Notes under the pieces: model-generated
The model's input: only the letters and a program-made list of their open reading frames with translations
Databases searched by the model: none
What the model was told of the DNA's origin: nothing
Position numbers and translations under genes: made by a program
Origin: an uncultured beta proteobacterium
GTDB taxonomy: Bacteria; Pseudomonadota; Gammaproteobacteria; Burkholderiales; Burkholderiaceae_C
Assembly (NCBI GenBank): GCA_963791595.1
Contig: CAWBTF010000014.1
Span: 455,417-519,416 of the forward strand
DNA: 64,000 nucleotides
Direction: 5' to 3'
Shown: one piece after another, positions 491 to 49,342 of the stretch
Layout: the number at the start of each line of letters is the position of its first letter
Position numbering within the stretch: position 1 is the stretch's first letter

Positions 491-581
491 TACCAGTTCG
501 CTTTCGTTTACATAGAAATGGGGGTCTGCCTTCGGCCCATTGCTGACACTCACCGCTGCGCGCCCGCCAGCTGCGGCGCGA

Positions 582-931
582 GGGCAGGTGGCCCGGGGCA
601 CGTTCTCCGGCCCACGCTCGCGGGGCACTCGATGTGGACCACCGCGCGCAGTTCCATCAACGCCAGCCAAGCTCGCGAAGAGCCAGGACACCGCGAATGG
701 GGCCTGCGACCGTACCCCGAGCCACCTGCCCCGGCCACCGGGTGGCACCCCTGCGCATCGCCCGTCACCGTGGGGTGCAGCAGGGCGGTGGTGGTGCCCC
801 CGTGCGCAGGCCCCATTCGCGGTGTCCTGGCTCTTGACGCGCTTGGACGGTGATGAGGCGGTTGAGCGTCGTGGGCTGCGGTGGTGCCCCGCGAGCGAGG
901 GCCGGAGCACGGGGGCGCCGCCACCGCCCTG
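582..931 (-). repeat. MITE-like repeat, copy A (inverted relative to copies B and C); imperfect 27-bp terminal inverted repeats (TTCTCCGGCCCACGCTCGCGGGGCACT … GTGCCCCGCGAGCGAGGGCCGGAGCAC) and an internal palindrome CGCGAATGGGGCCTGCGA / GGCCCCATTCGCGG
   Basis: direct comparison with 18146-18511 and 47941-48304; it lies intergenic between the TctA fragment and fic. Confidence 0.75.
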
Positions 932-1206
932 GGCAACGGTGGCAGGTGGGCTGCGCTTGCACGGACCGCCGGTTTTCGCTCGAAGCCCCCAGCCACCTGA
1001 CCTCGCGTCGCAGCTGGCATGCGCGCAGCGCCGAACGTCAGCAATGGGCCGAGGTGCGGTTGAAAGCCAGTCCGTATGAGGGATTGCGTACTCACGCCGA
1101 TTGCTGCGCCACAACTCGCGGCCCTGCACTGTGTCTTGTCCACAGACGGGCCACCTCCGCCCTTTCGATCTCCTGCGGCACTGACCGAAGGTGGTCGCCC
1201 TTGTAC

Positions 1207-2412
1207 TCAGGGGGCCGATGACGCGACGATTTGCGGGGCACGCAGGTCCGCGTCGGGCTTTTGCAGCAGCGCCAAGAGTTCGTGTGCGACATAGAGGCGC
1301 CCCCATTGGCGGCCAGTTACTTCGCGCAAGCAACCTTGTTCCTCAAGTGCCGCTATGGCTGCGCGTGCCGTGGGGTCCGTCTTCTGCATCACCCGCGCGG
1401 CTCGCTTGGCGTCGGTGAGCGGATTCTGGAACAGGGCGTCGATCAACGTCAACACGCCGGCTTGGCCGGCAAAGTGCGTACGGTAGCGCTCGCGCAGGTC
1501 GAGCAATGCTGTGACCTGTCCGGCGGCCAGCCTCGCGGTCACTTCAATCCCTTGCAGGAAGTAGATGAGCCAGCCGCGCCAATCGCTGTGGGTTCGGGTG
1601 CGCTGGAGGCGCTCGTAGTACTCCGTTTTGTTGGCTTCGATATAAGCCGACAGGTACAGGAGTGGCCGCGACAGACGCTGGCGCTCGCTGAGGAACAGCG
1701 TAATCAGCAAGCGGCCGACACGTCCGTTGCCGTCTGCAAACGGGTGCAGCGTTTCGAAATGAGCGTGCATCAGTGCGCACTGCACAAGGTCTGGCAATGT
1801 GTGGCGCTCATGCAGGAATTTTTCCCAGGAATCCAGGCAGGCCATCAAGCGATCCGGCGGGGGAGGCACGAAGGTGGCTGTATCGATGCGGCTGCCCAAC
1901 GTACCGATGAAATTCTGGTGGGTTCGGAAGTTGCCTGGATTCTTGTCGCCGCCGCGTACACCTTGCATCAGCTGCTCGTGCAGTTCGCGCACCAACCGAA
2001 GTGACAGGGGCAGCTCATGCAGGCGGCGCAGCCCGTGCTCAAGCGCAAGTACGTAGTTTTGGACTTCAGCGGTATCAGCATGGGCGGGCTGTTTGGCGTC
2101 TGTGGGCCTCAGTTCTTCTTCGAAAAGGTCGGAGAGGCTCGCTTGCGTGCCTTCGATCCGCGAAGACAGTACCGCCTCTTGGCGCATGTAGGGTGCAATG
2201 AGCAGATGCGGATTGGGGAGCTGGCGGCCCATGCCGGACAGTTCAGACAGGCTGGCGTCGGCGAGGGAGAGCAGGCGGACGAGTTCAGGATCGAAGTCGA
2301 GGTGCGGCGGCAAAGCAGCAGGCACAAAGGCCGGTACGCCCTGGGGGGTAGTGACCAGTTCACCCAGGAGGGGTTCGACAAAGTCTTCACGGCGCATGGC
2401 TATTAAATCCAA
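1207..2412 (-). CDS. fic: Fic family protein (Fic/DOC fold, probable AMP-transferase); canonical HPFADGNGRVGR motif and an N-terminal inhibitory-helix motif SRIEG ([S/T]xxxE[G/N]), i.e. class II auto-inhibited Fic
   Basis: motifs read in the 401-aa ORF translation. Confidence 0.85.
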   Translation of the reverse strand: MDLIAMRREDFVEPLLGELVTTPQGVPAFVPAALPPHLDFDPELVRLLSLADASLSELSGMGRQLPNPHLLIAPYMRQEAVLSSRIEGTQASLSDLFEEELRPTDAKQPAHADTAEVQNYVLALEHGLRRLHELPLSLRLVRELHEQLMQGVRGGDKNPGNFRTHQNFIGTLGSRIDTATFVPPPPDRLMACLDSWEKFLHERHTLPDLVQCALMHAHFETLHPFADGNGRVGRLLITLFLSERQRLSRPLLYLSAYIEANKTEYYERLQRTRTHSDWRGWLIYFLQGIEVTARLAAGQVTALLDLRERYRTHFAGQAGVLTLIDALFQNPLTDAKRAARVMQKTDPTARAAIAALEEQGCLREVTGRQWGRLYVAHELLALLQKPDADLRAPQIVASSAP

Positions 2413-18060: not shown

Positions 18061-18145
18061 CCACAGGCTCAGCCAGCGGCGCGCGCGCCACGGCGCGAAT
18101 TACGGTGAGCGAAGCGGCCGGCAGTGGAGCGCGCCTGCGTCCGAG

Positions 18146-18511
18146 CGGCAGGGCGGCGGCGCCGCCCCCGTTCTCCGGCCCACGCTCGCGGGGTACCACC
18201 GAGGTTGGCAACGGCCATTCTCGTCATCGCGGCCTGTGCCCTGGCAACGCTTGCGGGCCACCGCGAATGGGGCCTGCGAACGGGGGCACCACCACCGCCC
18301 TGTGCACGGTCGTTGGCGCGGCACCTCGTTGACCGTCACCTTTCGTGCCGGGGCAGGTGGCTCGGGGTGCGTTCGCAGGCCCCATTCGCGGTGGCCCGCA
18401 AACGGTTCCTTGGCACTGGCGGTGTTGACGCATGAACGCATCCTGACCACGGCGGTACCCCGCGAGCGTGGGCCGGAGAACGCACCCCGGGCCACCTGCC
18501 CGTGCTCGATG
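18146..18511 (+). repeat. MITE-like repeat, copy B (TIR TTCTCCGGCCCACGCTCGCGGGGTACC … GGTACCCCGCGAGCGTGGGCCGGAGAA)
   Basis: about 93-95% identical to copy C; lies intergenic between mnmA and the CAP-domain gene. Confidence 0.8.
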
Positions 18512-29385: not shown

Positions 29386-29462
29386 GTCGCGTTCGTCTAG
29401 CCGGCCCAGGACGCCACCCTTTCAAGGTGACTACGCGGGTTCGAGACCCGCACGCGACGCCA
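29386..29462 (+). tRNA. tRNA-Glu (anticodon TTC)
   Basis: cloverleaf folded by hand; D-arm GTCTAGCCGGCCCAGGAC almost identical to E. coli tRNA-Glu; 27-43 mismatch; encoded CCA. Confidence 0.8.
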
Positions 29463-29551
29463 GTCAAGGAACCCTCGTCGAGCTTGTGCTTCGAGGGCGG
29501 AAATCGGCCGCAACGATTGGGCGGCGCCGGAACCCGTGCCCGGATGGAATT

Positions 29552-29627
29552 GCCTCGTTAACTCAGCGGCCAGAGTGCCGGCCTGTCTAGCCGGAAGCCG
29601 CGGGTTCGATCCCCGCACGAGGCGCCA
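29552..29627 (+). tRNA. tRNA-Asp (anticodon GTC)
   Basis: acceptor GCCTCGT/ACGAGGC; anticodon loop CTGTCTA; T-arm GCGGG-TTCGATC-CCCGC; CCA. Confidence 0.8.
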
Positions 29628-29637
29628 GGACAAATCT

Positions 29638-29713
29638 GCCGAGATAGCTCAGCCGGTAGAGCGGCGCGTTGAAGGCGCGTGCGTCGGGGGATCGAAGCCC
29701 TCTCTCGGCACCA
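29638..29713 (+). tRNA. tRNA-Phe (anticodon GAA); atypical G37 and T-loop ATCGAAG (A54)
   Basis: acceptor GCCGAGA/TCTCGGC; D-arm TAGCTCAGCCGGTAGAGC; anticodon loop TTGAAGG. Confidence 0.7.
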
Positions 29714-29719
29714 GACAGA

Positions 29720-29797
29720 ACCTCGTTAGCTCAGTGGAATCAGAGCATCGGCCTACGAAGCCGAGGGTCGCACGTTCGAGTCGTGCACGAGGTGCCA
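29720..29797 (+). tRNA. tRNA-Arg (anticodon ACG)
   Basis: acceptor ACCTCGT/ACGAGGT; anticodon loop CTACGAA; T-arm GCACG-TTCGAGT-CGTGC; CCA. Confidence 0.8.
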
Positions 29798-29802
29798 CTC
29801 AT

Positions 29803-29878
29803 CTCGGTGTGGCGCAGATGGCAGCGCGCGTGCTTCGGGAGCACGGGGTCGCAGGTTCGAGACCTGCCACCGAGACCA
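29803..29878 (+). tRNA. tRNA-Pro (anticodon CGG)
   Basis: acceptor CTCGGTG/CACCGAG; anticodon loop TTCGGGA; T-arm GCAGG-TTCGAGA-CCTGC; CCA. Confidence 0.8.
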
Positions 29879-29899
29879 TTCGACGACGTGCGCTTGGGC

Positions 29900-29973
29900 G
29901 TGGCCGTAGCTCAACGGCAGAGCTGCGGGATGTGACCCCGCCGGTGCCGGTTCGATTCCGGCCGGTCACCCCC
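29900..29973 (+). tRNA. tRNA-His (anticodon GTG); no encoded G-1 (C at -1), C73 discriminator, A32, and a 3' end CCCCA rather than a clean CCA
   Basis: acceptor GTGGCCG/CGGTCAC; D-arm TAGCTCAACGGCAGAGC; anticodon loop ATGTGAC; T-arm GCCGG-TTCGATT-CCGGC. Confidence 0.6.
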
Positions 29974-29990
29974 AAGCGCACACAACCCAC

Positions 29991-30066
29991 GCGTCGCGAA
30001 CTCGAGCGGCAGAGTACCGGGCTTTTAACCCGGCGTGTCAGGGTTCGAGCCCCTGGCGACGCACCA
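29991..30066 (+). tRNA. tRNA-Lys (anticodon TTT)
   Basis: acceptor GCGTCGC/GCGACGC; anticodon loop CTTTTAA; T-arm CAGGG-TTCGAGC-CCCTG; CCA. Confidence 0.8.
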
Positions 30067-30067
30067 C

Positions 30068-30153
30068 CCCCTCGTGGCGGAATCGGCAGACGCGCCGGTC
30101 TCAGAAACCGGTGCCCAAAGGGCATGTCCGTTCGACCCGGACCGAGGGGACCA
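30068..30153 (+). tRNA. tRNA-Leu (anticodon CAG), type II with a long variable arm
   Basis: acceptor CCCCTCG/CGAGGGG; anticodon loop CTCAGAA; variable arm TGCCCAAAGGGCAT; T-arm GTCCG-TTCGACC-CGGAC; CCA. Confidence 0.8.
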
Positions 30154-30157
30154 ATGA

Positions 30158-30233
30158 TGCGGTGTAGTCGAGTGGCCTCAGACACCAGCCTTTGAAGCTG
30201 GGGACGTTGGTTCAAATCCAACCGCCGCTGCCA
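30158..30233 (+). tRNA. tRNA-Gln (anticodon TTG); U1-U72 mismatch at the top of the acceptor stem and a 3-bp D-stem
   Basis: anticodon arm CCAGC-CTTTGAA-GCTGG; T-arm GTTGG-TTCAAAT-CCAAC; CCA. Confidence 0.65.
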
Positions 30234-31009: not shown

Positions 31010-31066
31010 GGGCCGTCAATGGATTGCACCGCGAGGTGCCGGGTTCGATCCCCGGATGGCCCTCCA
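31010..31066 (+). ncRNA. 57-nt tRNA-like minihelix: a 7-bp acceptor stem (GGGCCGU/AUGGCCC), a GCACC-GCGA-GGUGC tetraloop hairpin, a canonical T-arm (CCGGG-TTCGATC-CCCGG), discriminator U and CCA; no D-arm or anticodon arm
   Basis: hand folding; either an internally deleted tRNA remnant or a tRNA-like domain of a larger ncRNA. Confidence 0.4.
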
Positions 31067-31140
31067 CTGGATAGCTCAGATGGGTAGAGCAACGACCTGA
31101 TAAGTCGTGTGTCGCGGGTTCGACTCCCGCTCCAAAGCAC
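31065..31140 (+). pseudogene. tRNA-Ile(GAT)-like pseudogene: intact D-arm, anticodon arm (ACGAC-CTGATAA-GTCGT) and T-arm, but the acceptor-stem strands (CACTGGA vs TCCAAAG) do not pair; a tRNA-Cys-like anticodon hairpin (CTGGA-CTGCAAA-TCCAG) follows at about 31146-31162
   Basis: hand folding of the sequence between the HNH gene and the SPFH gene. Confidence 0.45.
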
Positions 31141-37943: not shown

Positions 37944-38023
37944 GTCATCCCGGCGAAAGCCGGGATCCACCGCCCAGAGTCGCGCATCGGCCCAAGGTGG
38001 ATCCCGGCCTGCGCCGGGATGAC
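37944..38023. repeat. pair of REP-like palindromic elements in inverted orientation (BIME-like): GTCATCCCGGCGAAAGCCGGGATCCACC … GGTGGATCCCGGCCTGCGCCGGGATGAC
   Basis: mutually reverse-complementary; third copy at 49314-49342; translated by the run-on ORF as …VIPAKAGIH…. Confidence 0.8.
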
Positions 38024-47874: not shown

Positions 47875-47940
47875 GGGTTCCGATATCGCGGCGCTCACTG
47901 CGGAAGCTCCATCGAGCAGGGCAGCGCGCATACGTCCGCG

Positions 47941-48304
47941 CGGCAGGGCGGTGGCGGCGCCCCCGCTCTCCGGCCCACGCTCGCGGGGTACCACCGAAGC
48001 CCACAACAGACAGCCGCGTCATCGCCGTCCAAGTGCACGAAGAGCCAGGACACCGCGAATGGGGCCTGCGATCGGGGGCACCACCACCGCCCTGTGCAAG
48101 GTCGTTGGCGCGCCACCTCGTTGACCGTCACCTTCGTGCCGGGGGCAGGTGGCTCGGGGTGCGTTCGCAGGCCCCATTCGCGGTGGCCCGCAAGCGCATC
48201 CAGGGCACTGGCGGTTTTGACGCATAAATGATTCCCTGCCGCGACTGGTACCCCGCGAGCGTGGGCCGGAGAACGCACCCCGGGCCGCCTGCCCCTGCTC
48301 GATG
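47941..48304 (+). repeat. MITE-like repeat, copy C, inserted between the two permease genes of the second Liv-like operon
   Basis: TIR GCTCTCCGGCCCACGCTCGCGGGGTACC … GGTACCCCGCGAGCGTGGGCCGGAGAACG; about 93-95% identical to copy B. Confidence 0.8.
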
Positions 48305-49270: not shown

Positions 49271-49313
49271 GCGTCACCCCGGCGCACGCCGGGGTCCAGT
49301 GTGGCGCACTTCG

Positions 49314-49342
49314 GGTGGATCCCGGCGTTCGCCGGGATGACG
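49314..49342. repeat. REP-like palindromic element GGTGGATCCCGGCGTTCGCCGGGATGACG, preceded by the hairpin CCCCGGCGCACGCCGGGG
   Basis: same family as 37944-38023; intergenic between the SBP and the livH-like gene. Confidence 0.75.

Follow-up and report, generated by a model that had tools for sequence, protein, structure and literature searches.

Three copies of a palindromic repeat

The stretch of DNA analysed here (64,000 nucleotides; hereafter the window) carries three copies of one repeat, designated A, B and C, which lie between tctA and fic, between mnmA and a CAP-domain gene, and between livH-like and livM-like genes, respectively. The fic gene adjoining copy A encodes a Fic/DOC-family protein (window 1207-2412, minus strand) with Fic_N and Fic domains. 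All three copies were present where the initial annotation had placed them (582-931, inverted; 18146-18511; 47941-48304), and its description of a multicopy, non-coding, palindromic family in intergenic positions, with copy C between two permease genes (both of BPD_transp_2 type), was borne out. The inverted repeats it described were recovered in each copy, twice per copy and on opposite strands. Searches of the window with the outer 20-mer TCCGGCCCACGCTCGCGGGG gave six matches at up to three mismatches compared with 0.11 expected, and the inner 20-mer CGCAGGCCCCATTCGCGGTG gave six compared with 0.06 expected; six matches were attained in none of 100 shuffles for the outer and the inner 20-mer alike.

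Copies B and C, previously put at 93-95% identity, are 86.5% identical overall (85.4% in the BLAST alignment), and copy A is, as had been noted, inverted and more diverged (71% identity with B and 74% with C). Copy C is a mosaic, the left half of which is nearest to copy A (86% between the HL modules described below) and the right half to copy B (88% between the HR modules). Inverted repeats were found at the ends originally assigned to the copies, but similarity and palindromy run past these ends in copies A and C. Shorter inverted repeats do stand at the true element ends: copy C terminates in a perfect 12-nt repeat (CATCGAGCAGGG / CCCTGCTCGATG) and copy B in a short outer repeat (TCCGAGC.. 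/ ..GCTCGAT). Copy A is enclosed by two shell arms of 68 nt, 85% complementary and containing GGCCCATTGCTGAC, and its left extension bears a third R-type arm, a feature of the left extension of full-length copies. Please refer to Table 1 for the positions of all features.

Table 1. Positions of the three copies, their parts and their neighbouring genes in the window. Scores are those of the covariance model R1 on the canonical and on the opposite strand.
Feature	Position	Strand or orientation	Description
Copy A, full-length with outer shell	532-1052	-	Inverted-repeat shell arms
Copy A shell arms	532-599 and 985-1052		68 nt each
Copy A HR	579-735	canonical -	134.5 bits; 39.1 bits opposite
Copy A HL	778-933	canonical +	131.5 bits; 33.5 bits opposite
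Copy A left extension	~934-984		Third R-type arm
Copy A neighbours	tctA (3' end 272), fic (3' end 1207)	convergent	
Copy B, whole element	18140-18511	+	Outer repeat, HL, centre hairpin, HR
Copy B HL	18147-18305	canonical -	116.9 bits; 35.1 bits opposite
Copy B HL, 5' box	18261-18277		GCAGGCCCCATTCGCGG
Copy B HL, 3' box	18171-18193		CCCCGCGAGCGTGGGCCGGAGAA
Copy B central hairpin	18303-18349	no strand	Variable sequence
Copy B HR	18347-18504	canonical +	129.5 bits; 53.9 bits opposite
Copy B HR, 5' box	18375-18391		
Copy B HR, 3' box	18458-18480		
Copy B within-half repeats, left	18149-18181 with 18270-18302		
Copy B within-half repeats, right	18343-18382 with 18470-18509		
Copy B neighbours	mnmA (ends 18060), CAP-domain gene (stop 18575)	convergent	
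Copy C, whole inserted segment	47910-48304	+	Perfect 12-nt inverted repeat at ends
Copy C terminal repeat	47910-47921 and 48293-48304		12 nt
Copy C HL	47942-48097	canonical -	137.1 bits; 38.0 bits opposite
Copy C HR	48139-48297	canonical +	126 bits; 50.2 bits opposite
Copy C neighbours	livH-like and livM-like permease genes		Element antisense to operon

Anatomy of the hairpin module

The element consists of two inverted hairpin modules of ~160 nt (H; ~156-160 nt in length) placed around a central hairpin, which across the family measures 41-48 nt and is variable in sequence. Besides the repeats that pair one half with the other, each half of every window copy contains inverted repeats of its own. 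Read along its canonical strand, H comprises a basal stem of 22-24 bp, free in sequence and kept in pairing, a tandem G.A step (replaced by two T-A pairs in copies B and C of the window), an invariant 5' box (GCAGGCCCCATTCGCGG), an apical region kept at 64-69 nt that carries GGTGTTGA(T/C)G, an invariant 3' box (CCCCGCGAGCGTGGGCCGGAGAA) and the return arm. The two boxes pair imperfectly with one another, leaving fixed internal loops. The right module (HR) is canonical on the plus strand of the element and the left module (HL) on the minus strand, with both 5' ends directed toward the centre. Across genomes, a distinct stem type and a distinct apical 3' half go with the L-type and with the R-type modules.

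The 27-nt "TIR" of the initial annotation is the 3' box of the two H modules, its "internal palindrome" is the 5' box, and what it called "conserved flanks" corresponds to the outer arm of each basal stem. Outward of the 27-nt repeats lie the conserved, paired aL and aR arms of at least 22 nt, followed in most copies by a further shell; most cores, including that of copy A, stand at a fixed distance inside this outer inverted-repeat shell, the arms of which are of the TTCGGCCCTTTGCTGCCGTTCG type. The proposal of a MITE with 27-bp terminal repeats was not upheld: each of these repeats is a box inside one of the two inverted hairpin modules.

Pairing and strand specificity of the modules

Modules were collected from the window and from 99 loci (the matches listed) of ~21 Rubrivivax/Rhizobacter-like genomes, yielding 126 distinct modules by box anchoring and 132 by the covariance model. 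In the model alignment of the 132 modules, 91.8% of the basal-stem cells were paired compared with 77.0 ± 0.4% in shuffles (0 of 500), the covariation score was 0.358 compared with 0.105 in shuffles, and sliding the partner by 1-3 columns reduced the pairing to 37-53%. Changes on both sides of the pair were found for 21 of the 24 basal-stem pairs. Since the model alignment had been fitted to the structure, the stem was retested on a gap-free, box-anchored alignment, in which 84.9% pairing was obtained compared with 63.2 ± 1.2% for random partners and 37-47% when shifted. In an Aquabacterium copy (L030), the stems are wholly different in sequence, yet perfectly complementary.

The long rod formed by the whole element was rejected as the functional fold: the variable regions of the two halves (vL and reverse-complemented vR) showed 63% complementarity within elements and 59-61% between elements. 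The rod is nevertheless the minimum-free-energy structure, partly recovered by RNAalifold, for the sole reason that invariant boxes carried by two inverted modules must be complementary to each other. No conserved structure of the 67-nt apical region was detected by alifold or by APC-corrected mutual information.

Wobble pairs were ~11 times commoner on the canonical strand (267 TG and 38 GT) than on the other strand (8 CA and 19 AC). On the canonical strand the covariance model R1 gave the six window modules 117-137 bits, compared with 33-54 bits on the opposite strand (~80 bits apart), and it detected no H modules in the window beyond these six. The fold of the canonical strand is 2-19 kcal/mol more stable than that of its complement (-107.8 compared with -93.1 kcal/mol for HL of copy B). 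The wobble asymmetry, the model scores and the fold stability together indicate that it is in single-stranded form that H works or is copied. Among the wobbles, 5'-U/3'-G pairs exceed 5'-G/3'-U pairs 7-10-fold, a bias that a hairpin-DNA model does not explain.

Distribution and variants

A scan of species-representative genomes with the outer 20-mer returned at least 99 loci, and the matches listed all fall in Rubrivivax-, Rhizobacter- or Aquabacterium-like Burkholderiales (~21 genomes, with at least 10-15 loci per genome; the initial annotation had projected on the order of hundreds). The carriers among these matches are the isolate Rubrivivax albus ICH-3 and ~20 MAGs, and many of the contigs listed stop within the element. 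No match was obtained in plasmid and phage collections (BLAST, distant mode), nor did viral contigs match either H box. The core of the 43 full doublets measures 347-359 nt, with 65-80% identity between genomes. Genome-specific subfamilies are supported, the nearest relative being found in the same genome for 78 of the 126 modules from the matches listed.

Elements with a single H, either HL or HR alone, are common in mid-contig and intact, scoring 108-141 bits, the same range as paired modules. Collapsed mini-elements were found at three loci (L091, L003 and L058), and the outer shell was found empty at L051 and with a different palindromic cargo at L100. Two loci considered as a box without a core match (L029 and L078) proved to be merely truncated end remnants of the element.

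Several loci showed further rearrangements. At L023 (2700-2950) a full copy directly adjoins a tandem duplication of the element's left end, comprising a shell piece, aL and the 3' box, and a tandem duplication is also present in the element flank at L102. The copy of Candidatus Aquabacterium excrementipullorum (L030, 330-380) has at its centre a perfect terminator-like hairpin, AGGAGAAAGGGCGACCC-GTTG-GGGTCGCCCTTTCTCC followed by TTTT, which is absent from the window copies. At L007 (3380-3681) a truncated element (left arm and box) abuts a LexA-box-like motif, CTGTATGCATGTCCAG, which precedes an ORF starting MSSGSETDTPRLIAHLDMDAFYASVE that looks like a Y-family or ImuB-type polymerase.

Genomic position and site occupancy

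Among full elements with both flanks callable (n=20), nine lie between convergent, ten between co-directional and one between divergent genes. The gene adjoining an H usually reads into the non-canonical strand of the module, and single-H elements among co-directional genes occur in either orientation (3 compared with 2).

The site of copy C was compared with six homologous loci (L100-L105), at which the livH-livM pair is present. In the window the livH-livM spacer measures 490 bp and contains the core element, and it is likewise filled in two metagenome contigs with 97% identical LivH (L102 and L103). Three loci with 95-96% identical LivH lack the element: the spacer is 66 bp at L101, the gene calls are 22 bp apart at L104 and the genes overlap at L105. 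At L100 the spacer holds the shell with other cargo. Polymorphism for presence and absence at an orthologous site was therefore seen at livH-livM. Consistent occupation of the same relative position in conserved intergenic regions of distant relatives was regarded in the initial annotation as a sign of a conserved regulatory motif rather than a mobile element. This holds only in part: one orthologous locus (L023/L055/L058) is occupied in three genomes, with the collapsed form in one of them, and other loci are polymorphic.

Manual inspection of seven full copies of one genome revealed no visible target-site duplication; the filled/empty comparison at copy C allows a 3-bp GAG duplication, as read across diverged flanks. 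Vertical inheritance could account for much of the distribution, current mobility then being slight.

Searches for a partner protein, an RNA family and transcription signals

Within 690 kb of element flanks, no IS with matching ends, no transposase and no Y1/RAYT-like ORF was found. Searches by tblastn with IS608 TnpA and E. coli RayT produced nothing but spurious matches in ordinary genes, one in an acyl-CoA synthetase and one in an ABC ATPase/acyl-CoA dehydrogenase region. ORF clustering gave no recurrent neighbour gene, returning ordinary metabolic families and orthologous loci.

Rfam 15, applied to the whole window, gave no match at the copies at gathering thresholds, and chance matches only were obtained for copy A (400-1150) at E≤10. 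No intrinsic terminator (GC-rich hairpin followed by a T run) was detected in or around copies A and B, and no sigma-70-like promoter in or beside the copies. The conserved GTGTTGA(C/T)G was considered as a promoter and discarded, as no -10 element was seen by eye at the right spacing and the scan was negative; ATCAACAC was rejected by eye as an IHF site, the TTR part of the consensus being absent. Literature searches yielded no described repeat of this kind for Rubrivivax or Burkholderiales.

Comparison with known repeats

For REPINs and REP sequences with RAYT transposases (Bertels & Rainey 2011, PMC3116915; Nunvar 2010, PMC2817692), the definition used is that of PMC3116915, in which REPINs are inverted REP doublets with conserved boxes, decayed singlets and an associated RAYT, and with a spacer in which compensatory changes preserve both length and pairing. 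Like REPINs, the elements are multicopy, lie outside genes and have variants particular to each genome; the unit is itself an imperfect palindrome, and the units form inverted doublets with a spacer of conserved length. Conserved boxes stand beside less conserved parts with compensatory pairing, singlets and higher-order variants occur and some sites are vertical; REPINs make no target-site duplication, and no secure one was seen here. Unlike REPINs, the H unit measures ~160 nt (REP, 20-40 nt) and the doublet ~360 nt, or up to 520 nt with the shell (REPIN, ~70-110 nt). The compensated helix lies within each H and not between units, the L and R units are paralogues differentiated from one another, and singlets show no visible decay. 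In the 690 kb of flanks no RAYT was detected, and no conserved GTAG-like tetranucleotide was seen at the hairpin foot.

With the BIMEs of enterobacteria and the NIMEs of Neisseria the family shares modular palindromic units in alternating orientation, combined with other conserved motifs, a shell reused with other cargo or empty (L100 and L051), and sites between convergent genes and in operons; the sequences are unrelated, however, and the modules are much larger here. Correia/CREE, ERIC, RUP and BOX elements are similarly short and non-coding, with inverted ends and long-hairpin potential, and break assemblies. Those elements have true terminal repeats, with defined target-site duplications for Correia and RUP, whereas in the present family the conspicuous repeats lie inside the element, pairing is specific to one strand and the long rod has not been kept.

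Interpretation of the element

The repeat family is real and well defined, and the mechanistic label initially given to it is too simple. In our preferred reading, to which we give about an even chance, the element belongs with the palindromic intergenic repeats of the REP/REPIN/BIME kind, as a non-autonomous composite of very large units that acts through single-stranded DNA hairpins and a trans-acting partner. The observations from which this reading starts are the anatomy, the covariation, the strand specificity and the multicopy, genome-specific distribution, together with the position at gene 3' ends and in operons, the avoidance of promoters, the deletion variants and the orthologous site that is either filled or empty. 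The H hairpins would extrude in single-stranded DNA, and the invariant boxes and loops would be recognised by a protein whose gene lies elsewhere in the genome, the most plausible candidate being a single-copy HUH/Y1 (RAYT-like) enzyme or another hairpin-specific recombinase. Such a protein might copy or maintain the elements without making target-site duplications, and any effect on neighbouring transcripts would be secondary.

The lack of any secure target-site duplication would suit the REPIN-like reading, as HUH-type mobility predicts none. The reading is weakened by the negative search for a partner in the 690 kb of flanks, by the length of H, 4-8 times that of any described REP, and by single-H scores equal to those of paired modules, given that REP singlets decay (PMC3116915). 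Also against it are the occupation of the same orthologous locus in three genomes, the G.U-type asymmetry and tandem G.A, which are equally typical of functional RNA, and the unexplained excess of 5'-U/3'-G wobbles. In our reading the element works like a REPIN, most likely as single-stranded DNA hairpins read by a trans-acting protein, and it is not filed as one: membership is not established because the unit is too long, the helix lies within units, the singlets are undecayed and no RAYT was found (690 kb). The initial annotation had left a choice between a non-autonomous transposable element and a structured RNA or REP-like element; of these, REP-like is the best fit, and the TIR-based MITE model was not sustained.

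More tentatively, and with a probability that we place well on the doubtful side, H may be the recognition structure of an undescribed hairpin-specific system, either a 160-nt single-stranded DNA, REPIN-like replicator or an RNA family of ~160 nt, in which the opposite-strand pair is functional. In the replicator form the hairpins would be handled by an unknown HUH enzyme or recombinase; in the RNA form, molecules with the 22-bp stem, the tandem G.A and the fixed loops would be made divergently from the centre of the element. In both forms the opposite-strand arrangement of the two modules would not be a by-product of palindromy.

The main rival to the REPIN-like reading is a role at the RNA level, which we consider unlikely. 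Each H would be a structured RNA, acting in cis in read-through transcripts of the flanking genes, as a 3'-end stabiliser or processing site or as an insulator where genes converge, or else a small RNA from the canonical strand, and the inverted pair would guarantee one canonical hairpin for a transcript arriving from either direction. Strong covariation with wobbles tolerated on one strand only would suit such a role, as would the tandem G.A and fixed loops beside invariant boxes, which resemble a protein-binding RNA motif, the gene-3'-end sites (9/20 convergent, 10/20 in operons and 1/20 divergent) and the terminator-like hairpin at the centre of L030. Set against these are the missing sigma-70-like promoters at the copies and intrinsic terminators at copies A and B, the lack of an Rfam match even at E≤10 (copy A), the adjoining genes that usually read the non-canonical strand, the even-handed orientation of single H modules (3 compared with 2) and the 67-nt apical region, in which no conserved pairing was detected. 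A perfect RNA stem of 22-24 bp would moreover be a substrate of RNase III, and a cis function that the cell requires is hard to reconcile with the filled/empty polymorphism in an operon that looks essential.

It is improbable that the element is a host-domesticated DNA structure, no longer mobile, whose hairpins or cruciforms are putative binding or organising sites for chromosomal proteins; BIMEs offer a precedent, as binding of gyrase, IHF and Pol I has been reported for them. The boxes invariant across ~21 genomes, the constant module lengths, the persistence at one orthologous locus in three genomes and the equal conservation of single and paired H modules are consistent with domestication, but genome-specific subfamilies and contig breaks point to recent amplification or homogenisation, presence varies between close relatives, and frequent internal deletions suggest weak constraint per copy.

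The least supported explanation, a classical MITE derived by deletion from a DDE-type IS and mobilised through its TIRs as double-stranded DNA with incidental inner palindromes, would account for a small, non-coding, multicopy element with end repeats (12 nt in copy C, the shell in copy A), a site filled or empty with a possible 3-bp GAG duplication, and shell repeats enclosing other cargo (L100) or none (L051) in the manner of ends of one transposase, but is very unlikely given that the 27-nt repeats are internal, that the seven full copies of one genome show no visible target-site duplication, that a double-stranded mechanism requires neither basal-stem covariation nor strand specificity, that the halves stay differentiated L/R paralogues of fixed module length across genomes, that no transposase with these ends occurs in the 690 kb of flanks, and that intact elements with one "TIR" (a single H) are common.

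REP and REPIN repeats are short and have been described mainly from gammaproteobacteria. Here REPIN logic, with inverted pairs of strand-specific palindromic units, invariant boxes, compensated stems and vertical persistence interrupted by occasional gain or loss, appears with hairpins several-fold larger, in a little-studied clade of Burkholderiales from soil and fresh water, so that the logic of REP/REPIN systems may exceed their current definition. H, with its invariant boxes, fixed loops and freely varying stem, would be an unusually information-rich recognition structure that could be used for finding and testing the partner protein. Metagenome assemblies break at the element, which can also be misread as a MITE, a terminator or a non-coding RNA, and copy C, situated in a transporter operon, may affect polarity.

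Other features of the window

A second palindromic family consists of paired ATCCCGGC-N4-GCCGGGAT mini-hairpins at 37947-38020 and 49276-49338 of the window (four matches compared with 0.09 expected), one pair lying just upstream of livH. In a related MAG, the same unit forms the shell cargo at the livH-livM spacer (L100, 3451-3692). We take these mini-hairpins to resemble the dRS3/NIME-type repeats of Neisseria.

The window also contains nine head-to-tail tRNA genes within ~850 bp (29386-30233; Glu, Asp, Phe, Arg, Pro, His, Lys, Leu and Gln), an array unusually dense for a chromosomal region, with a tRNA-Ile gene ~830 bp past it (31065-31138).
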